Source: a virus
Virus record (IMG/VR): IMGVR_UViG_3300034107_000136
Location: 37,710-101,709 of that record
Reading direction: 5' to 3' (one strand)
DNA: 64,000 nucleotides
The notes below the pieces were generated by a model, which worked only from the letters and a program-made list of their open reading frames with translations, made no database searches and was not told where the DNA came from. Position numbers and translations under genes: made by a program. This document shows positions 2,886 through 38,210 of this stretch, one piece after another. Position 1 is the first letter of the stretch. Every line of letters starts with the position of its first letter.

Positions 2886-3358
2886 TGGCGTTATTTCCAT
2901 GCTACAACCTATTCTTTCCAATGCATTGCGATGTCTACTATTCAGTAGAGACTCAAGATGATTATGGAAAGATGGTAAAAGAATGGTTTTTTGATAGATC
3001 AGAACATTGCTCAATATATTCAATTAGCGATAGATCTAATGATGAAAACTTTACTTTTAATGCCGCCAGCAAAGACATATTCTTTAAATTAGAAACCATG
3101 CTGTATGGAAGAACTCAAACAGATTTAAGAAAATCTTCAAGTGGAGAATACTATCCAATGTCTAATATTTTAATAAAAAATATTCGTGGCTTAGAGGGAG
3201 ATGACTCATTCTTTATTGAGACTGTAGGCGGGTATTCTGGAAAATCAACAATATATGAGATAAAGGCAAATCAACCATACGTTGGACCATTTAATAAAGT
3301 AGACTACTTTAAGATACAATTAGAACGTTCAGATATTCAAGGTGAGTTGATAACATGA
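2882..3358 (+). CDS. Head-to-tail stopper/closure protein
   Basis: Position, size, QDDYG motif. Confidence 0.6.
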   Translation: MMALFPCYNLFFPMHCDVYYSVETQDDYGKMVKEWFFDRSEHCSIYSISDRSNDENFTFNAASKDIFFKLETMLYGRTQTDLRKSSSGEYYPMSNILIKNIRGLEGDDSFFIETVGGYSGKSTIYEIKANQPYVGPFNKVDYFKIQLERSDIQGELIT

Positions 3359-4026
3359 TAGACATTAAGGTTGATGCAATGCAACTAAACAAAACTTTAA
3401 AGAATGTTGTGGATTACTCTGAAGGATTTCTTAAAGGTATAAACATGAAATCAATAGAGTTTAATAATGAGGTTGCTAACTTTACACATGCTGCACTAAA
3501 TAAATATATTGATTCTCAAGCAAGAATGAATCCACTTAGGCTTCACCATGTGTATGAGTGGGGCAAGGCTGGTAATCAAGCATCAAGACTTTTTGAGTTT
3601 GATACAAGAGTCTTAGGAAAAACTATATCATTTACTGGAAAGTTTCTTCCATCAAGATCTGTAAGTGATACGTCAAGTGAACCGTTTGTCAACAAGGCAA
3701 ATATTATGGAAAACGACATTCAAATAGTAATAGAGCCAAAGAATAGCGACGTGTTAGTATTTGAAAACAATGGAGAAACAGTTTTTACCACAAATGCAAT
3801 TTATATAGATCATCCTGGTGGAAATGAAGTTGCTGGAAGTTTTGGAGAAACAGTGAGTAATTTTTTTGACAATTACTTTACCAATGGATTGTTAAAGCCA
3901 TTAATAAATAAACTATCAACAGCAAGTGAGTTTGCTGCATCATTTTCCTCTGGTGCAAAAAGCGGTAGCAATGTGGGCATTCGTGCAGGAAAAGAATATT
4001 TAAATCTTAAGGGGATAGTTGAATGA
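3355..4026 (+). CDS. Neck/tail completion protein (putative)
   Basis: Synteny between stopper and terminator; LHHVYEW motif. Confidence 0.5.
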   Translation: MIDIKVDAMQLNKTLKNVVDYSEGFLKGINMKSIEFNNEVANFTHAALNKYIDSQARMNPLRLHHVYEWGKAGNQASRLFEFDTRVLGKTISFTGKFLPSRSVSDTSSEPFVNKANIMENDIQIVIEPKNSDVLVFENNGETVFTTNAIYIDHPGGNEVAGSFGETVSNFFDNYFTNGLLKPLINKLSTASEFAASFSSGAKSGSNVGIRAGKEYLNLKGIVE

Positions 4027-4526
4027 GCCTAACAGATCTAACCTTGCCAGTGCTTGCAGTAAACGGATATCTATGGGATACCATGAAAGACATTGAGCCA
4101 AGTTTTGCGGCAAGGTATGGATCTACCCTACCATTCTTCCCACTTAGCGATTCAGCAACGGGAGCAAGTTGGGAAAACAAACCTTACATTATCTATGACA
4201 GAATGATGAGAACTACGGGAAGTTCATTTTATCCAATAAAGAAGGATCATATACTTTATGCGGTAAAAGCAACAGACATTGAATCATTGCAGTGGGGACT
4301 TGCAATTGAATACATTCTTGATAGAATGGATGATGCTGCTCAAGATATCAATGAGTGGAATAGACAAAAGAATAATAAATATAAGGTATACTTTCATAGT
4401 TTGAGAGTGTTTCAATCGGAATCCTCTACAAATAGAAACTTCAGTACGAGGCCGTACTATATTACTGAATTCATCGTTCAGTCTGAATATCACTTTACTG
4501 AGTCATTAGAATCATTTTTGACATAA
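4023..4526 (+). CDS. Tail terminator protein (putative)
   Basis: Immediately upstream of major tail gene; size. Confidence 0.5.
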   Translation: MSLTDLTLPVLAVNGYLWDTMKDIEPSFAARYGSTLPFFPLSDSATGASWENKPYIIYDRMMRTTGSSFYPIKKDHILYAVKATDIESLQWGLAIEYILDRMDDAAQDINEWNRQKNNKYKVYFHSLRVFQSESSTNRNFSTRPYYITEFIVQSEYHFTESLESFLT

Positions 4527-4596
4527 AAAAGCAGGTATAATAGTACCGAGGGAACAACCGCAACAAAAAATAAAAGGAAAATAGAGGTGAAGTAAA

Positions 4597-5271
4597 ATGG
4601 CTTATAGTCGTGGTGATTCAAAGCAGATTATCATTGGTGCAGCAGCACTATTTGTATCAAAGACTGCTCAATTTGATCCAACAAATACCAGCCCAGTTCT
4701 ACCAGATTTCGTGGCAGGTACAGCATACCGTGAAACACTTACAACTGCTTCAACAGTAGTTCGTAACGTCGGTTACACAATGAACGGTTTAGAAATTCAA
4801 TTTCAGCCAGATTTTGGTGAGGTTCAAGTAGATCAAATTCTTGACGTTGCAAAGTTGTACAAGCAAGGAATGCAGGTTAACCTTAACACAGCATTTGCAG
4901 AAGCAACTCTTGAGAACCTTCTCGTAGCAATTGCTGCTAGCGATAATGACCTTGCAAAAGATGTCAAGATGGACAACCCACTTGAAATAGGAACAGTTAA
5001 CTTTGCAGATGTCATGGAAATTAAATCAGGCGAACTTGGCGAATGCCCAGTAGAGCGTGGACTTATTGCAATTGGACCTGGAACAGGAGACTGTGCTGCT
5101 GGTTCAACAATCGAAAGAATTTATGTTGCTTACCGTGCCCTCTCAATTGAGAGTGTTACAGTATCCGCAAAGCGTGATGCCCCTTCAATGTTTGAAGTTT
5201 CATTCCGTTTGCTCCCAGCAAACAACGGTTCATACGGAAAGATCGTTGACCGTCTCGTCCCATCTTCATGA
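4597..5271 (+). CDS. Major tail protein
   Basis: VGYTMNGLE, VDQILD, AEATLENL motifs; strong SD; followed by terminator. Confidence 0.85.
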   Translation: MAYSRGDSKQIIIGAAALFVSKTAQFDPTNTSPVLPDFVAGTAYRETLTTASTVVRNVGYTMNGLEIQFQPDFGEVQVDQILDVAKLYKQGMQVNLNTAFAEATLENLLVAIAASDNDLAKDVKMDNPLEIGTVNFADVMEIKSGELGECPVERGLIAIGPGTGDCAAGSTIERIYVAYRALSIESVTVSAKRDAPSMFEVSFRLLPANNGSYGKIVDRLVPSS

Positions 5272-5295
5272 TGTGACTATAATTTAATAGGCATT

Positions 5296-5318
5296 GGCCC
5301 CGCTTCGGCGGGGCTTTT
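5296..5318 (+). terminator. Rho-independent terminator
   Basis: GGCCCCGC-TTCG-GCGGGGCT-TTT. Confidence 0.85.
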
Positions 5319-5367
5319 GTCATGCGTGATATAATTTACACACAAACCTTAGAAAGGGTAAAAATAA

Positions 5368-5709
5368 ATGGCTACTACAGTTTTTGAAAAGACAGATCTT
5401 GTACTTATGGATGGCACAAAAATATCTATGCGTCCATTAAAGATTTCACTCCTTCGTAAGTTCATGAAGAAGTTCGATACCGTTGTTGAGGTTGCCTCAA
5501 GTAACGTTGATTCAATGGATGTACTTATTGATTGTGCATTGATTGCAATGGAGCAGTACGCCCCAGATCTTTCAACAGATCGTGAGAAGTTTGAAGATGT
5601 TGCTGACATTAAGATGGTTTACAAGATCATTGAAGTTGCTTCTGGTATCAAGTTGGACGCAGAGGGAAACGATCAGGCGATGGCGGCGGCACTACTTGGT
5701 CAGAACTAG
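5368..5709 (+). CDS. Tail assembly chaperone (gpG-like)
   Basis: Between tail tube and tape measure; in-phase slippery G-GGA-AAC at 5664-5670. Confidence 0.85.
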   Translation: MATTVFEKTDLVLMDGTKISMRPLKISLLRKFMKKFDTVVEVASSNVDSMDVLIDCALIAMEQYAPDLSTDREKFEDVADIKMVYKIIEVASGIKLDAEGNDQAMAAALLGQN

Positions 5710-6071
5710 ACCTCGCTGTCCTTGAATCAGAAATATTTCTTTTAGGTAATTGGAAGGATTATGAAGAATTAGAAGATAATCTTTCTATGCCAGAATTAAC
5801 GGCAACCCTAACAGCAATAAGAGAAAGAGAAAACAATCACAATAAATTCTTAGCAGCAATTCAAGGAATTGACCTTGATGGAGAATCTCAAGAAACCAAA
5901 GGGCAGAAAGAATGGGAAGACCTTAAAGCAAGGGTATTTAGCGGTGGAACTGCAAAAGATTCAAATGATATAACATCCCTTCAAGGGATAAATGCTTCAC
6001 AGGCTGGTTTTGGTATTGGCGCTGGTCTTTCTTACAACAATGTTGGAGATGGATCGGGTAGTTGGGCATGA
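5670..6071 (+). CDS. Tail assembly chaperone -1 frameshift extension (gpGT-like)
   Basis: -1 frame from 5670 open (RSGDGGGTTWSELDLAVLESEIFLLGNWKDYEELE...) and continuous with ORF 5787-6071. Confidence 0.85.
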   Translation, partial: RSGDGGGTTWSELDLAVLESEIFLLGNWKDYEELEDNLSMPELTATLTAIRERENNHNKFLAAIQGIDLDGESQETKGQKEWEDLKARVFSGGTAKDSNDITSLQGINASQAGFGIGAGLSYNNVGDGSGSWA

Positions 6072-6106
6072 GGAAAAATGATATAATCTATTAAGGTGAA
6101 AACATA

Positions 6107-9100
6107 ATGGCAGATGTAAATGCAATCATTAATATAGACATTAACTCGTCTTCTGCATTGGTAAATCTTAAAAGACTTGAATCGCAGATAGATCAGTTTA
6201 ATCGGTCTGTATCAACAAGCAATGCAACGGCTGCTGCATCACAACAAAGTTTAAATAGAGCACTTCTTGATGGCATAAATAACACTGGATTATTTACTTC
6301 AAAGATTATTCCAGTTGAATCATCAATGAAAAGATTTTCAAGATCTTTAGATGAGGGTCGTTTATCTCTTGGAGAGTATACAAGATACGCTGGATCTCAA
6401 TTACCTGGATTAAGCAAGGTGTTTAGAAAAGAATTTGACTCCATTGAACAAGTTGCCACATCTAGAGTTAAATCAATGCAGACTCAATATCTTGCCCTTG
6501 GTAAAACGGTAGATGGAGTTACAAGAGCAATCTCTTCAACTCCAACTGGATTAGCAAAAGGTATGGCTACAGACTTAGCCATGACTCAACAACGACAACA
6601 AATATTCAATAAATTACTTGATGATGGTTCTACTAAGTTGTTGAACTGGGGTAAAAATACTCAATGGGCTGGTCGTCAGTTGATGGTTGGCTTTAGCCTT
6701 CCCCTTGCTGCATTTGGCGCTGCCGCTGCCAAAACATTCATGGAAATTGACAAAGCAACTATTTCACTTAAAAGAGTTTATGGAGACTTAAGCACAACAA
6801 AAGAAGAGTTAGATTCAAATGTTGAGGCAGTAAAAGGTCTTGGAAAAGAATATACTAAATACGGTATAACACTAGCAGAAACAATATCCTTGTCTGGACG
6901 TGCGGCAGCCACTGGTGCAACAAATGAAAAACTTATGGCTGCAACTGAACAGACACTAAGATTTGCAACACTTGGTCAAATGGACTACAATCAAGCACTT
7001 GATACAACAATTTCTCTTCAAACTGCATTTGCAATTTCCAATGAAGATCTTGGGAAAACTGTAGATTACCTTAACGCTGTAGAAAACCAAACAATTCTTA
7101 CAATGGAAGACATGTCTGTTGCTATTCCAAGAGTTGCCACGGTAGTCAAGGGACTTGGGGGTAGTGTACAAGATTTAGCAGTAATGATGACAGCAATGCG
7201 TGAAGGTGGAGTAAGCGCAGAGAATGCTGCAAACGGTTTGAAGTCAGGTCTTGCATCTTTGATTAATCCAACAAAGAGGGCATCTGAAAGTTTGGCTGAT
7301 ATGGGTGTCAATCTCAAAGGCATCATTAATCAAAATAAGGGTGACCTTATGGGTATCGTTACTGAATTTGGAACGGCAATAAATAAACTAGATGAATTTA
7401 GTCGTCAACAGGTTCTTGAGCAGGTATTCGGTAAATTTCAGTATGCAAGAATGAGCGCATTATTTACTAATATTACAAAAGATGCTGGACAAGCAGCAAG
7501 AGCAATGGATCTTGCTGGAATGTCAGCAGAAGATCTTGCAAAGATTTCTGAAAAAGAACTTGGACAGATATCAGAATCAACATCTGTAAAGTTTCAAGCA
7601 TCAATGGAAAAACTTAAAATTTCCATCGCACCTATTGGAGAGGCATTCTTAAAAGGAATCACTCCAGTAGTCGATATGGTTTCAAAAATTGCTGATGCAT
7701 TTAATAATCTTCCAGATGGGGTAAAAAATGCAATAGCAGTTCTTACGGGCGTGGTTGCAGGAATAGGCCCAGTACTCCTTATGACCATTGGTTTGTTAGG
7801 TAACGGTATAGCAAACATAACAAAATTTGTTCAATTTATTAGAAAAAGTTTGGCTGGCATCAAGGGTGATGCATCAGCATTCACTTATTTAGCACAAGGA
7901 GAACTTGAAGCAGTAACAGCAAGCAAGGCGCTTGAAGGTAGTGCTGTTAATCTTACAGATAAATTACTTCTTCAAAGGGGAGCAGTAGTTGGTCTTACAG
8001 CAGAATACGAAAGATTTGCTCGTGCCGCAGGAATTGCTAGAGCAGAAATGGGACTAGTAAGTGGAGCGCCCATGCCCAGTGGTGGAGGTAGGCAAGCAAT
8101 ACCAGTACCAAGAATACGCAAAAATACAGGTGGAACAATTCCAGGTGTTGGAAGCACAGACACAGTTCCTGCAATGCTTACGCCTGGTGAATTTGTAATT
8201 AACAAAAAAGCAACTGCTCAAAACCTTCCACTGCTTCATGCAATAAATGATGGAAAAGGAATGGGAGGATTTAATAAGGGTGGGCAGATTCCTGGGGTAC
8301 AGTATTTTGCAATGGCAGGAAAAGTTCTTCCAAAACCCAAAAATGTAACTGTTCCTAAAGGTACGCAATCACCACAAATGACACATACAACACCAAAACC
8401 TATTTTATCAACAATTGGCACAGCAATGCCACAAAGAATTCTTGGTTCAGCAAGAGGAAGAGTTGCTCAGAGATTGGCTAATGCTGGAATTCCAGTTGAG
8501 TTATTAACTGATGCATGGATAAGAAGTCCATTTAATCAAAAACTTAAATCTAAAGTGCAAGGCTCAACAATAACTGATTGGGTAGAAGATTTAAAAGATA
8601 GTCAACTTGGTCCAGCGTACAGAAGAGCAGAAATAAGAGCGAGTGATTTAAGAGAAGAACTAAGAGGTAGTTTTCTTTCTGAAAACACTTATACTCAAGA
8701 GGATTTTGGAAATATAATAGAAGATGCTGCTAAAAGAATAAAACCAAGTTTTAGTCCAGCAATAGATTCTGCATATTTACCAAAACCAGAAGTTTTAAGA
8801 GAATATTCAGAGCAACTTGAGAGTGCTGGATTTTATTTACAAAAAAATGAAGCCAACGGTAAGAATTACATTGTAGATAGCACAGAAGTAGAAAAAAGAC
8901 AAATGGCTTCTTCCTCATACCCTTTAACAAGAAATAAAGGTGGTTTAATTCCTGGTGGAGAAGTAACACAAAGTAGACCATTCTATGGAGTGTTCAATGC
9001 AAAAACAATTGATATGTTTAAGAATTGGATAGGAACTCATTCTGAAGCAATTCCTGCACTTAGACAAACGATATTAAAAGATCCTAAAATGAAGTCAATG

Positions 9101-12100
9101 TTTGGTTCAGCATTTTTAAAAAGTAAAGAACCAGAAACATTACTTCGTTCTCAATTTATGTCATCTGTACCAGAGATTGGTTCTGAATTATCTTTAGGAG
9201 CGTTAAGGTCTTTTTCTGCCGAAGGTACTGATGTAGTGAGACACCTAGCAGATAGTAAAATAAGAAAGGAGGCTGAAAAAGCATCTTATGAGTTAGGTGT
9301 AGATCAAAAGAGACAAAAAAGAGATGCAGCAAGATTAAGAAAGGCAGAAACTGTTGGACTACCATCTTGGTCACCAGAACATAAATATCGTAGTCCAGTT
9401 GGTGGAGCAACTGGAATAGATGCGTGGATGGAAGATACTAGACGATCAATTGAACAAGGAAAAGCAGGTATTAAAAAAAGCAAATCAAAGATAAGGGATT
9501 ACAGGAAATTAAATCCAACCATCATTAGATTAAAAACTCCTGCTGGAACAATTCGTGCAAATCTTGATGATATTGTTCCACAAATTGAGCAGCAGTATGG
9601 AACTTCAGGTTCGTCTTATCAAGTTCAAGAACAAGAAAGAATTCTTAATAACGCAAGAATAAAAGTAAGTGGTAAGTCAACAGATAAAAATGGAATTACC
9701 ACTTTAGATGCTGAATTGATAGAATCCTTTGGATTAAATAAGGGTGGAACAATTCCAGGATCAGGAAATACAGATACAGTTCCAGCAATGCTTACACCAG
9801 GAGAATTTGTAGTAAATAAAAAAGCAACACAATCTAATATTGATCTATTACATGCAATCAACAGTAATGGCGATTCTCAATCAATGAAAAAATTTAACAA
9901 GGGTGGAATGATTGGTGACGTTCAATATTTTGCAGAGGGTGGTGAGGCTCAATCAGATAGAGGTAGTGCATCTGGATCTGGGGCATACAAAGCAGAAACA
10001 AGAAGAGTTATGGCTGTTGGTTGGGACAGTCTACAAACAGAATTAGACATTTTAAAAGAAATGAAAAAAAATAATGAACTTAATGAAACTCAAGTTAAAG
10101 CATTTTCTCAAGGAGAAACATCCCATATAACTCCAGAAGTTGGTCCAAATGGAGGAAAGATGTGGAGGCCATCAAATATGATGGCAGACTTGGGATTAAT
10201 CAATAATTACATTGAAGCACAAAAAGGTACATCTAAAAAAGCATTAGGAAATGCTAAATTGTTTGATGAAATTCAAAGCAAAACAAGTCTTTCCGCAGAA
10301 CGTTTGCGTGCAGAATTAGACTTACTTTCACGAGGATTCCATGCAACAACAAAAGAATCTGCTATGGCATTACGAGCACTCTCTCAAGTTGGTGATCAAA
10401 CCGGACAAAAAATAGCAGTTAGTAGAGTTTTAGATGCTAGATTACAGGGAACATTCTATGACACCTTAAATGCACCAGAAAGACAATACCGTTCAGACCT
10501 TCCAGTAGAAGAAAAATTTGGCAAGCGTAGTAAGCGTAGTAAGCCTGATAGAAACATTCCTCAGCCTGAAACTAGAGATCCAATGCGTCCACCAAAGTTA
10601 TCAGCACAAGAAGCGGATAAAATTAAAAGAAACGCAGAAAGAGAAGCAAGGTCTAGTCTTGGAATAGCACCGCACAGAGGATTTAGTGCAAGTCAAGGTG
10701 GAGGAGGGTATGATCAAAACGATATATTCATTCCTCAACAAGTTATAGATGAGGAATCTAAAAAAATAAGAACTAGAGAGTATGACAAAAGAAATAAGGA
10801 GCATGGAAGAGAACAAGCAAGATTAATTGCAGCATCAAAACAAAGCGAAATGAATCAGCCAACTCCACCAACTCCACCAACTCCACCAGAAATAGATGCA
10901 GATAAGCAAGGTAAAAGAGCAAAAATGGGTAGAGGAATGGCAAAGGCTGGTGGTGTCATAGGAATGGCATCCATGCTTCCCTTTATGATGCAAGATCAAG
11001 AAGGTAAGTTTATGGGCATGGATGCAAACATGCTTGGCATGGGAATGATGGGTGCAGGAATGGCTATGCCAGCAATAGGAAGTGCTATGAGTGCAGGTGG
11101 TGGTGCTGGAATGCTTGCAGGAGGTGGTGTGCTTGCAACCCTTGCTCCAGTGTTAGCCCCACTCGCTGCTGCCGCTGCTGTTGCTGGCGTTGGCTTGATG
11201 TTGTGGAGAAAAAACATTGATGAGACTTCTAAAGAAACATCTAAGTTAGCATCTAATGTTGGAGTAACAGCAAACTCTTTAGGAGAAGTATCAAAAATAT
11301 TAGGAGTCTCAACTCCATCTCAAAGACAAGCCCAAATGAACTTAGGAATAACAAAAGAAGATATTCAAAATCAAGAAATAATTTCTCCAATTCTTCAAAG
11401 TGAAGGTGGTCAAAAGTTTATTGAAGAATTAAAAACTGCAACATCTGAAGAAAGATTTAAGAAATTAGCAGATTACACTAAAGCGGCTATTGCCTCAGGA
11501 ATGATGGACAAGTCAATGGCTTCAACATTTGCTAAGGGGGTCAGCCTTTCATTAAACGATGTTCTTCTTGGAAGAAGAATGATGCCAGTTATATCTGGTC
11601 AAAAGATTGGCAGTGGTGGAATGATGTCCATAGCAGATGAAAGAATTTCTGCTCTTAATAAATCCTCAGAAATAAAAAGAGTTGCAGCAGCAAGCGGAGA
11701 ATCTCGAACTATCACAACTGCTGACGCGGCCTATACAGTAGGAGCAACAACTCAAGTAATATCTGATCTTTCTAATGTTATTGCTTTGGCTAGAGAGGAG
11801 TACGATAAGGGAACAATATCATTTGAAAAGATGAGATCAACAGTAGACAAGGCAACTGCTTCTCAGAATGAATACAGCAGTATGCTTACAAAAGCAATTT
11901 CTGGGTCTATGGAGCAAGGTGGAACCAGACAAGCACTTAATGATGCTCTTGTCACTATGGGTGTTGATCCAGAAAAAATATCAACATTTAAGAATGCTAT
12001 GGATATAGGTGTGGGCGGTCTTGGAGTAAGTGCTTTTCAACAAGAACAAACAAAAAGAATTTTGACAGAAAAGGGAATGTCTGGAAACATAGTTACTAAT

Positions 12101-18900: not shown

Positions 18901-20580
18901 GCAAATAGAGTACAGACACCAATTGGAAGTGCTGAGTACATTTCAATCTCCCCCACAGATTCAAGCCAGCAGATGAGCATCTCAGGAGGCTCAGGTGGAA
19001 TAGGTGTTATGGTCAATAACACAACAAACAATGGTTATTATTTTGAAATAGCAGCACTAACAAACAACAACATAAGCAGTTATTATGATTCCAATAGAAA
19101 GCAAATAGTTGTCTATCCTGTTGCAGTAGGAGGAATAGCACTTTCTGGATCTGGAAACAGGATAGTAACAGTTACTACATCTGTAAATCATCAGTTTAAG
19201 GTTGGTGAAAAAGTTGTTATGTCTGGTTTTGTTAGATCCCCAGTCAGTTCAGAGGTAAATGGTGAGTTTACAATAACAGCAGTAACAGCAAGAACGCTCA
19301 CCTATGACTCAGGAGTATCAATTCCAGGAGTTCCGACAAGCGGTGGGCAAGCAGAAATCTATATTGACTCTGGTGTAAACATAAACAACCTAATATTTTA
19401 TAAGGTAGTTGAAGGACCAGATCCAGTTACAGGAGTAAGAGGAGCAGCCTACCCAGTCAAACTATGGTCTGGACTTGGAAACATCCTTGTTGACTCAGGA
19501 AGGTTTACAGGACAATATAGAACCGTTGGAGAAAATGCACCAACAGTATATGATCTTGCGGTAGAGTATAAGGATAGTGGAACAATCAGAACCTTCTACT
19601 TATATGTAAATGATAAACAAGTTGCAACAGTAGTAGATAGTGATCCTTTAATAAAAAATAACAACATGTGTGTCTTTGTTCGTGGGTCAACAAAGTGTAT
19701 GTTTGAAAACGTATACGCTTTATCAGAAAACTATGCTCAGAACACTATTGCCACAGCAGTAGATAACATATCGCAAGTGTTTGGAGATACAGAGATAAAC
19801 TCTTCTGAGGCGTTAAGGAAATATGCGGTAAATGGTTTTGTTCAGGCATCGTATTTAAGTGGTATCAGTAGTTATCAGCCACCAAACTTTAATATGTATT
19901 TTGAAGAATTTGGCACAATACTAAGAGAAGCCGCTCATTTTAATATTGAGTATGACAGAGCCTATCCTGCATTATATGCAAAACTTGCTCCAACAATGAA
20001 TAGAATTAAAACATATTCATCTTCTGGATTCTATGCTGGGGCATACGCAGCAGACTTCTTAATCTTTAATTGTTTAGATAAAAATATTAACCTTGACCCA
20101 ACATCGGGAAACTTCCTAAGAATTCAAGGAATAACATTTACTCAAAACACAACTAAAACTTTAACAGTAGATGATTATTTTAATAGAGTGTCAAATCTTG
20201 CTGACCCACAATTTGATTCTGGAAACTTAGTTTATAGTCCATTACATGCAAAAGAACTATACAACAAAGTGAAGGTTAGTAGAACTCGCCACGGCAATCA
20301 AGAGTTTTCTATTGATAGCATGTATATACAAACAGATGCAGCAGCGAATGATACCTTGGGTTGGATTATTAATAGAACGATGGAGCCTAAAAAGAATATT
20401 GGGATGACCACCTTCGGAACCCAAATGATTCAATTAGGAGATTTAGTAAACATATCCTATACAAATCCTGAAGGCATCAATGTTATTGCAGATATAGATA
20501 CAAAGTTTGTCGTCTATAATATTGAATATGGAAGAACTTCAAGCGGGACAAATATGACGTTATATTTGGCTGAGGTGTAG
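15973..20580 (+). CDS. Large minor tail/baseplate hub protein
   Basis: 1535 aa beta-rich; MFFDEYNNF and IQLGDLVNI hub-like motifs. Confidence 0.75.
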   Translation: MFQSDALKDHLQTSYTIENKSLVFAEWNLNQPENIARIGNYRYRPSGGVVDAQFATVPLTYDINDAGGYYTGATDADIVVDGGYDDNGDPISFTTAKDKMQMLYSLEDCFNPFRPRSGINKMIYLGLSGAGYTESQYIANFGSDSATRPRYYLSSKYDQFKYWTSYRTQDGVEYGVSKTMFNGRSYIDDAVPFVVYNENITANRIVIKMQTNVGETNLGDIRVGETTIPDPLYGVANQTTPVRWRVEVLKGTSWIEVASFDENSLRSDGTAIIQSDGYVELAYGLQLPNEYKDIFVYAGEISSFDSLPTSAPNGYAYLLKDNSDDKGIFYIYNEVDSEWVGLDPQYTWDIADNFVSKNSKFVTDLTNPDYFWDQGKKVYRDIEVFKGIRIVVATMNKPNCTFDLIELSPRLSADLTDRVQDFSITRTLSDLGNGKIPVGSLLAGTGQINVNDNDFAFVQNNSFNEITSQGSIVSKYLLTHVKFMFYDVIRNVDSYDYYVPIKTMYSEGLPQSQGNFDQISINLRDAYLILEASPAPSLMLTDISLSAAIMILLDYIGFSNYVFKRIQGVPDPVIPYFFVAPNQNVAEVLTQLAVATQSAMFFDEYNNFVLMTKEYLLPDIGGRDLDITLFGNKVDSMLPNIIQVSSSNKSVNNNGQINYTQRYIQRTYGSTRQSMYSDEFKTWVYTPTLMWEVTGDQTTKAINETATEQSSYSLSAMPLNSNLTADVPTVINNTMTNNILDVGESIYYIARYNGFFYANGEIIKYDAVEYSITGQATPLWINNVQEYQNYFLNIPFNGKMYPTGKIRIYSEPEYIVVGGVTVMSPGPAKIHGRGQFGTTITNHDAGINTYWTDSNNVYGCQQQGNYIYSADQVVNYPLGLEKNTAAGISNAKARESSRNGIIKNTTSQVYWTERQVNEFTTAQSGTVQSSALVFTGPNFDTGVSPRDYVSYIHKPLDNAYKHFGTRMRIIGKIEAGANRVQTPIGSAEYISISPTDSSQQMSISGGSGGIGVMVNNTTNNGYYFEIAALTNNNISSYYDSNRKQIVVYPVAVGGIALSGSGNRIVTVTTSVNHQFKVGEKVVMSGFVRSPVSSEVNGEFTITAVTARTLTYDSGVSIPGVPTSGGQAEIYIDSGVNINNLIFYKVVEGPDPVTGVRGAAYPVKLWSGLGNILVDSGRFTGQYRTVGENAPTVYDLAVEYKDSGTIRTFYLYVNDKQVATVVDSDPLIKNNNMCVFVRGSTKCMFENVYALSENYAQNTIATAVDNISQVFGDTEINSSEALRKYAVNGFVQASYLSGISSYQPPNFNMYFEEFGTILREAAHFNIEYDRAYPALYAKLAPTMNRIKTYSSSGFYAGAYAADFLIFNCLDKNINLDPTSGNFLRIQGITFTQNTTKTLTVDDYFNRVSNLADPQFDSGNLVYSPLHAKELYNKVKVSRTRHGNQEFSIDSMYIQTDAAANDTLGWIINRTMEPKKNIGMTTFGTQMIQLGDLVNISYTNPEGINVIADIDTKFVVYNIEYGRTSSGTNMTLYLAEV

Positions 20581-37685: not shown

Positions 37686-38210
37686 ATGATAGATATTATT
37701 GAACACATGGAGGAAGTAAACAAAGTAGCCTCCGAATATATAAAAGGATTTAATGAGACTGAGATCTCTAAAGAACTTGACATACCAAGAGCCAGAGTAT
37801 CTTCTCTTCTTAGAGAATGGAAAGCGATGGCGTCTAACTCAGAAGCAGTTAGATCAAGAGCAAGAGAAGCCCTTGCTGGAGCAGATCAACATTACAGTAA
37901 GTTGATCAAGCAATCCTATGAAGTTATTGAAGATGCAAACACTCAAGGTAGCCTTTCAGCAAAGACTGCGGCTATAAAACTTATTCTAGATATTGAATCT
38001 AAGAGAATAGATATGCTTCAAAAAGCAGGGTTGTTAGAAAATAAAGAACTCTCAGATCAGTTATTGGAAACAGAAAGAAAACAAGAACTACTGATGAAGA
38101 TCTTAGTAGAAGTATCTGGCAAGTGTCCAACGTGCAAACTAAAAGTTCTTGATCGCCTATCAGAAGTATCTGGTCCAAATGGAGATGCCGTGGTAATCCA
38201 TGAATCTTGA
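37686..38210 (+). CDS. Terminase small subunit (putative)
   Basis: N-terminal HTH, helical, overlaps TerL. Confidence 0.6.
   Translation: MIDIIEHMEEVNKVASEYIKGFNETEISKELDIPRARVSSLLREWKAMASNSEAVRSRAREALAGADQHYSKLIKQSYEVIEDANTQGSLSAKTAAIKLILDIESKRIDMLQKAGLLENKELSDQLLETERKQELLMKILVEVSGKCPTCKLKVLDRLSEVSGPNGDAVVIHES

Follow-up and report, generated by a model that had tools for sequence, protein, structure and literature searches.

A repeat-bounded slot with exchangeable modules, one of them a predicted ADP-ribosyltransferase, in the tape measure protein of an uncultured siphovirus

Enzymes delivered by the virion, such as T4 Alt or the RNA polymerases of phages N4 and P23-45, decide the first seconds of infection. 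To our knowledge, such enzymes have until now been connected with the head or with one fixed fusion. Here, we describe a stretch of 64,000 nucleotides (hereafter, the window), which corresponds to positions 37710–101709 of the IMG/VR virus record IMGVR_UViG_3300034107_000136 (101.7 kb, estimated to be 94% complete). This window codes for a tape measure protein (TMP) that contains an internal slot bounded by copies of a repeated element, called R, and occupied by three modules (A, B, and C), of which B is predicted to be an ADP-ribosyltransferase (ART). This slot is refilled in relatives, and in this way the tail probably brings an exchangeable set of enzymes into the host.

Several described systems resemble parts of this arrangement. 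In Thermus phage P23-45, gp96 is a TMP fused to a virion RNA polymerase, an earlier example of an enzyme that is fused to a TMP and acts inside the cell (PMC10770324). Both gp96 and, if our prediction is correct, the protein described here combine a giant TMP and a cytoplasm-acting enzyme in one polypeptide, and the enzyme of gp96 is proposed to work at the TMP pore during DNA entry (PMC10770324). However, gp96 has one fixed N-terminal RNA polymerase, whereas the slot considered here is internal, lies between hydrophobic segments, is bounded by repeats, and is refilled in relatives. [quoted passage not shown] Like module B, these are virion-packed ARTs of the R-S-E type and follow a multi-domain, "polyvalent" logic, but they are packaged in the head (in a MuF, portal, or terminase context), often with a processing metallopeptidase. 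In contrast, module B is part of the tail ruler, and Pfam revealed no peptidase family in the whole 3,096-residue TMP. Neither of the two surveys cited above mentions TMPs. With respect to the polyvalent proteins of Iyer et al. (2017), one effector-type domain (B) was identified here, A and the first part of C (C1) are distinct domains, and both the MPTase domain and the head-packaging context that serve to define that group are absent from this TMP.

Enzyme domains within TMPs are also found among lysins, which act during DNA entry, for example the Rpf motif of mycobacteriophage TM4, the transglycosylase or M23 domains of staphylococcal and enterococcal phages, and T5 pb2. These lysins act on peptidoglycan outside the cytoplasm, whereas module B has the predicted fold of an NAD+-dependent protein-modifying enzyme. 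Similarly, in polymorphic toxins (CdiA, Rhs, MuF), short conserved pre-toxin motifs mark the recombinational exchange of modules on a conserved scaffold; however, their variable module lies at the C-terminus and comes with an immunity gene, whereas the modules of this TMP are internal and several of them follow in series (PMC3482391). A full-text search of one literature library identified no paper that links TMPs with ARTs, contains the R motif, or describes this arrangement. TMP-fused enzymes (wall hydrolases and the P23-45 RNA polymerase) and virion-delivered ARTs are each already known.

The TMP gene (6107..15397, on the + strand, as are all parts of the gene given below) is one uninterrupted open reading frame (ORF) of 3,096 codons. 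Its product matches PF10145 (PhageMin_Tail) at amino acids (aa) 242–442 (6830..7432; 99.5 bits for a cut-off of 33.2, E = 3e-28) and at least eight PHROG TMP families, down to E = 1.3e-94. The initial annotation of the window had described a TMP with an insert divided by recurring motifs, which proved to be correct, with every motif position exact. In the window, N[KT]GG.I[PG] occurs at 8123, 8273, 8933, 9737, and 9896, FA.[AG]G at 8306 and 9929, and the core [VI]PA.L[TS].GE (VPAMLTPGE) at 8165, 9779, and 15083; these motifs were found in no other of the six frames of the whole 64-kb window. Element R has the layout GG box, TDTVPAMLTPGEFV core, helix, GG box, and is present in three copies: R1 (aa 659–745, 8081..8341, with VQYFA after the second GG box; 90.6 bits with the R profile), R2 (aa 1193–1286, 9683..9964; 91.5 bits), and R3 (aa 2963–3051, 14993..15259; 62.6 bits), which ends 45 aa short of the C-terminus. 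A lone GG box is located at aa 943, outside these three copies.

A unit of ~65 aa had been reported as duplicated and as recurring near the C-terminus. The duplication is clear, with 69% identity between R1 and R2 over 70 aa (pairwise E = 1e-32) and 83% identity in their first 92 nt, but R3 has only the core in common with them (58% over 31 aa). At 32 identical residues of R1 and R2, 21 codons are identical, compared to 16 expected from codon usage; since this sharing exceeds expectation only slightly, selection acts on the protein and not on the DNA. On the same grounds, recent gene conversion between R1 and R2 was rejected. Folding of the three R copies together gave a score of 0.01, which provides no answer on self-association. 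The solved structures of lambda gpH and of mycobacteriophage Douge gp16, a protein with two R copies, neither of which is resolved, model only residues 818–849 and 1658–1699, respectively; these residues are outside the R regions, and there is therefore no experimental structure of R.

The 44 relatives that were retrieved and that share the N-terminal 650 aa all display the same order, namely an N-terminal domain, R, 300–1000 variable aa, R, the backbone, R, and the C-terminus, and the contents of the slot are mosaic among them. Sequence comparison indicates that two close relatives have swapped these contents exactly at the motifs, A alone in P0152 and both A and B in P0153. P0152 is 89% identical to this TMP over aa 1–739 and 97–100% identical in B, versus only 10–23% in A; at the residue level, identity stops just after GVQYFA and restarts at the GG box N.GG.I.GG.VTQSRPFYG. 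The comparison at the DNA level concerns one relative, P0153 (DNA L206), for which 85% identity over window positions 3221–8214 stops inside R1, no similarity is found over 8215–9742 (A and B), and 85% identity resumes from 9743, in the first codons of R2, to 13385. The exchange junctions coincide with the end of R1, the lone GG box (aa 943), and the start of R2. The cassette that replaces A and B in P0153 (L206:5121–6413) has no Pfam or PDB-sequence match and no recognizable domain.

These comparisons bear out the proposal of the initial annotation that modules are interchangeable between conserved repeats, and exclude that the modules are invariant across relatives. The related proposal that the repeats are recombination joints holds insofar as the junctions fall at R copies or GG boxes, but R is not specific to the cassette: long TMPs in the thousands have it as a conserved element, with more copies in longer proteins. 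Because R is conserved and in frame, we infer that it also serves as a recombination joint.

Module B (aa 943–1210, 8933..9736) comprises a GG box and an R-S-E ART domain with an inserted helical hairpin. In the AlphaFold2 model, the confident core covers aa ~1002–1207 (window positions 9110–9727, residues 60–265 of the modeled piece; pLDDT 79–94) and is composed of a beta core and a long helical hairpin, the latter being an insert of 80 aa. The best matches in the PDB according to Foldseek are mostly R-S-E ARTs (Vis, C3bot1, CDTa, iota Ia, C3larvin, ExoT, and VIP2), with E-values from 8.5e-4 and a probability of ~1.0. In addition, VIA superimposed the model on the Tre1 toxin (6drh_B) with a Z score of 9.7 and an rmsd of 2.2 Å over 93 aa (20% identity), and comparisons with Tre1, CDTa, SpvB, iota Ia, ExoS, and VahC gave Z scores of 9.0–9.7, with an rmsd of 2.2–2.7 Å over 93–104 aa and 14–24% identity.

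An alignment of module B with seven homologs (A1) and the wider set of 14 homologs point to the residues expected of such an enzyme. The candidate catalytic arginine, R1014 (9146..9148), is in the first core strand (model strand 68–76), S1035 (9209..9211) belongs to the S-x-S motif SFS (model strand 92–96), and E1175-Q-E1177 (9629..9637) forms an E-x-E motif, followed by RIL, at the start of model strand 235–238. R1014 and S1035 are invariant in the 14 homologs, as are E1175, E1177, R1178, I1179, and L1180, at pairwise identities of 29–99%. The Arg, Ser-x-Ser, and Glu-x-Glu elements thus appear in the order typical of ARTs and on the expected strands (the first, the second, and the head of a later strand). 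In the R-S-E clade, E-x-E is the signature of arginine-directed enzymes. By its modeled fold and its invariant motifs, module B is an arginine-type R-S-E ART and a predicted enzyme. No Pfam ART profile recognizes it, and its membership in the ART family therefore rests on fold and motifs; phmmer found no match among PDB sequences, and the ESM Atlas gave no usable match.

Homologs of module B are present in 15 of the 235 TMPs retrieved, and comparison of these proteins makes the GG box, the ART, and R appear to move together as if they were one unit. A search among shorter proteins for stand-alone homologs returned only P0004, a fragment at the end of a contig. The ART module starts with its own GG box and almost always ends within ~20 aa of the next R copy; P0007, in which ~110 aa separate the two, is the exception. 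A different ART is located in P0212, a 4,114-aa R-class TMP from a 142.6-kb contig, in which aa 1303–1513, between the R copies at aa 596–684 and 1777–1865, match PF03496 (26.8 bits for a cut-off of 23.4) and contain the classic motifs FISTS (STS) and EQEVLL (EQE). This ART and module B are unrelated in sequence, and P0212 is, on that evidence, a second and independent acquisition of an ART by a TMP.

Function is unassigned for module A (aa 746–942, 8342..8932), which is replaced in both P0152 and P0153 and has homologs, among the retrieved relatives, only in P0016, P0034, and P0146 (distant). Module C (aa 1287–1640) is divided into C1 (aa 1287–1460, 9965..10486) and C2 (aa 1461–1640, 10487..11026). 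C1 is a mostly helical domain (mean pLDDT of 69.8 in AlphaFold2); in an alignment with six relatives (A3), close relatives included, it has the invariant pattern S-H...K-x-W...D...N-x-Y...G-x-H, and the stretch with S-H, K-x-W, and N-x-Y has a pLDDT of 45–58. The possibility that C1 is an HNH (His-Me finger) nuclease is unsupported, with no fold match from Foldseek or VIA and no HNH match in Pfam. C2 is a charged, Pro/Gly-rich linker that includes (PT)n (33% KRDE, 18% G + P), and its modeled part has a pLDDT below 50. Pfam searches with A, B, C, and sub-pieces of them gave nothing credible, and no lysin family matched any module. A, B, and C are mutually dissimilar, with no high-scoring pair below E = 0.3, in agreement with the initial annotation, which had described three unrelated modules. 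It had also held the insert to be non-helical, which is too simple given the long hairpin of B and the helices of C1, and had credited at least two modules with enzyme-like motifs; one ART fold (B) was recovered, C1 yielded no fold match, and A matched nothing in sequence searches. A DNA search with the region encoding aa 673–1640 against 50,697 phage records gave no match, and a first scan of IMG/VR with the same 968-aa insert revealed no relative.

Element R itself is widespread. When 1.84 billion cluster representatives were scanned in full by HMMER with the insert (aa 673–1640, 968 aa), 3,804 of them matched at E ≤ 1e-3. The 150 matches listed arise mainly via R and are almost all to proteins of 2,000–7,900 aa, in each of which as many as 10 stretches are matched. 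Similarly, a word-indexed search with R1 only returned 1,815 proteins of 1.7–5.4 kaa, nearly all of which have PF10145 or are named tape measure proteins. More than 119 IMG/VR contigs encode the exact 13-residue core of R, and in bacterial genomes 357 stretches with the core were confirmed, in Cyanobacteria, Proteobacteria, Planctomycetota, Bacteroidota, Chloroflexota, Actinomycetota, and others. The motif is also present in TMPs of cultured Gordonia phages, Mycobacterium phages, and cyanophages; no Thermus phage was among the organisms tallied for R-motif matches in the phage collection. In the consensus of 625 copies, a first GG box is followed by TDTVPAMLTPGEFV, then by a short helix (LL..IN.G), and finally by another GG box. 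Copy number is correlated with TMP length (r = 0.76), from ~3 copies at 2 kaa to 7 above 5.5 kaa, i.e., about one copy per 750 aa. The first copy is located just past the N-terminal domain, and a terminal copy, present in nearly all TMPs of the R class, ends at a median of 115 aa from the C-terminus. As judged by these searches, this TMP is a member of a very large class, that of long TMPs with 2–10 copies of R, an element of 60–85 aa.

Some members of this class have further features. The giant R-class TMPs P0160, P0161, P0021, and P0202 include several with EF-hands (PF13202, PF13405, PF00036) and others with PF28597 or SHD1 (PF03983), and calcium-binding modules are thus situated inside some tape measures. 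P0154, a 2,548-aa relative, has a CW_7 peptidoglycan-binding repeat near its C-terminus (aa 2405–2440; PF08230, E = 2e-8), which hints at a wall-binding step and possibly at the type of host. In the 190-kb cyanophage Synechococcus phage S-MITS9220M01 (MT408532.1, 7550–7807), the R motif occurs in a "hypothetical protein"; in view of this match, R may not be confined to the TMPs of siphoviruses.

A link between R and TMP maturation is suggested by phage lambda, in which gpH has a single match to the R profile at aa 727–786 (20.5 bits, E = 1.8e-8 as a single sequence). During maturation, a peptide of ~14 kDa is removed from the glycine-rich C-terminal part of gpH, at a site not mapped exactly (PMC12617516); the size of this peptide places the cut near aa 725. 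In T5, the cut in pb2 was mapped after R1127 (PMC10038345); the sequence that comes next, AEGGMMYPGVSYQ, is similar to the GG box NKGGQIPGVQYF at the level of the motif only. In phage T5 (L208), pb2 aa 1128–1160 reads AEGGMMYPGVSYQMGEHGTEVV...KAT, a loose parallel, without statistical support, to the second GG box and the GE.VV...KAT core of R. These residues overlap the stretch that has been called the metallopeptidase motif of pb2. Lambda gpH (cut into gpH* and gpHC) and T5 pb2 (cut into pb2* and pb2C) are comparable to this TMP in that the R-like element of gpH is in the region of the cut and a cut at R3 would give a fragment of similar size; in contrast to this TMP, both have just one element, which is terminal, and lack an internal slot for cargo. 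By analogy, the C-terminal R copy may mark a maturation cut that releases a fragment of ~115–135 aa.

Outside the slot, PF10145 is part of a conserved N-terminal portion (aa 1–660) that is homologous across the 44 relatives, and the backbone (aa 1731–2970, 11297..15016), which includes a C-terminal coiled-coil-like part, is homologous in many relatives. Two strongly hydrophobic segments flank the region from R1 to C on both sides: aa 539–569 (7721..7813; Kyte-Doolittle maximum of 2.26 in a 19-residue window) and aa 1668–1700 (11108..11206), which is conserved in relatives and preceded by a Gly/Met-rich stretch. On its 5′ side, the gene is preceded by genes for head, adaptor, and Ig-domain (probable tube) proteins and by two small chaperone-like ORFs, and on its 3′ side it is followed by genes for minor tail proteins. 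The two small ORFs (5368–5709 and 5787–6071), directly upstream of the TMP gene, sit where the pair of tail assembly chaperones is usually encoded and match only PHROGs of unknown function; downstream, 15973–20580 encodes a minor tail protein of 1,535 aa, which matches phrog_10359 in four stretches and is probably the hub/Tal protein. The Pfam and PHROG matches, together with the position between the tube or chaperone-like genes and the minor tail genes, identify the 3,096-aa protein, at the level of sequence, as the TMP of an uncultured siphovirus of ~100 kb. At 1.5 Å per residue, the expected length of the tail is ~464 nm for all 3,096 aa and ~319 nm without aa 673–1640.

Overall, we consider it fairly probable that this protein is an R-class TMP with a cargo slot (R1, A, GG box, B, R2, C) between hydrophobic segments, that the slot is exchanged at R, and that it delivers an ART into the host cytoplasm. 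At infection, the TMP would exit the tail ahead of the DNA, its hydrophobic segments would enter the cytoplasmic membrane, and the loop between them would reach the cytoplasm, where the ART would use NAD+ to modify one or more host proteins before any phage gene is expressed. The outcome would resemble that of T4 Alt, but with delivery from the tail lumen. Several observations weigh against this interpretation. Module B has no Pfam family even at E ≤ 10, and an hhalign comparison of its profile with the PF03496-positive ART of P0212 was not significant (probability 0.3); its Foldseek E-values are only ~1e-3, its TM-scores are low, because of the 80-aa hairpin insert, and its candidate catalytic residues were placed by strand order. 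Module A has no match in Pfam, among PDB sequences, or in the ESM Atlas, and for C1, Foldseek returned nothing below E = 1 and the best Z score in VIA-wide was 5.6. R by itself is predicted by AlphaFold2 to be disordered (pLDDT < 40), its match in lambda gpH is weak against all PDB sequences (E = 0.019), and its profile does not match T5 pb2. Of 54 non-redundant inter-R segments (41.8 kaa) taken from other IMG/VR TMPs, Pfam matched just three, and effector cargo between R copies is therefore not established as a rule; these segments are mostly dark, and much of them may be ordinary ruler. Moreover, the position of the loop in the cytoplasm, the storage of a folded 30-kDa domain in the tail lumen, and cutting at R are proposals.

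Other interpretations of R and of its cargo have to be considered in light of these data. In our main interpretation, R most likely serves the TMP in docking, dependent on a partner, or in maturation. As an alternative, it is quite possible, if somewhat short of probable, that R is purely structural or an assembly element, i.e., a point at which the tail assembly chaperone, the tube lumen, or the hub docks, or a register node of the TMP trimer, and that its internal copies are never cut; junctions would then fall at R because conserved, in-frame sequence favors viable recombinants. The tracking of TMP length by copy number, with about one R per 750 aa, the fixed places of R immediately behind the N-terminal domain and ~115 aa before the C-terminus, its occurrence across many phyla, and the lack of domains in most inter-R sequence are all consistent with such a role, as are the disorder predicted for R alone, which would be expected of an element that folds on a partner, and the small number of extra synonymous codons common to R1 and R2. 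A structural R is, however, compatible with the delivery of cargo, and the sole experimentally known behavior of a region with an R-like element is proteolytic maturation, in lambda gpH. An extension of that behavior, which we regard as unlikely, is that R is a maturation module, as in the conversion of gpH to gpH*, and that giant TMPs are polyproteins cut at every R upon assembly or ejection, such that the tail lumen would store free effectors that are specific to the phage and rapidly exchangeable, here an Arg-specific ART, and release them ahead of the DNA.

The cargo itself could also be interpreted differently. TMPs are well known to be mosaic and variable in length, A, B, and C have no Pfam match, and C1 and A have no recognizable fold, which would fit an ordinary mosaic TMP whose inserts add length or act as structural filler and whose ART-like domain has degenerated to a non-catalytic remnant. 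This is improbable given that the Arg, the Ser, and both Glu of the ART motifs, together with RIL, are invariant down to 29% identity, that B is 97–100% identical in P0152 while the adjoining A is replaced, and that an independent, Pfam-recognized ART is present in another R-class TMP (P0212). We find it about as improbable that the cell envelope (periplasm or wall) is where the cassette acts, for instance by aiding penetration or by blocking superinfection: an ART needs NAD+, which is a cytoplasmic substrate, Pfam matches no module to a lysin family, and the CW_7 wall-binding repeat of P0154, which could be cited for such a role, is near the C-terminus and outside the slot. Known TMP-embedded enzymes are, however, mostly wall hydrolases, as in T5 pb2 (PMC10038345) and the TMP lysins of enterococcal phages and mycobacteriophages.

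With a predicted ART as cargo of the tape measure, the tail ruler itself offers a slot that is bounded by a pan-bacterial conserved motif and is refilled in relatives. If this interpretation is correct, siphoviruses, which are thought to be poor in NAD/ADP-ribose weaponry, may hide such enzymes in their TMPs, beyond the reach of Pfam, and tail lengths predicted from TMP length would need a correction for cargo. R is a concrete candidate for the unmapped maturation site of lambda gpH and for the organizer of very long TMPs. More generally, the slot and its junctions suggest a natural site for the insertion of cargo into the tails of laboratory phages.

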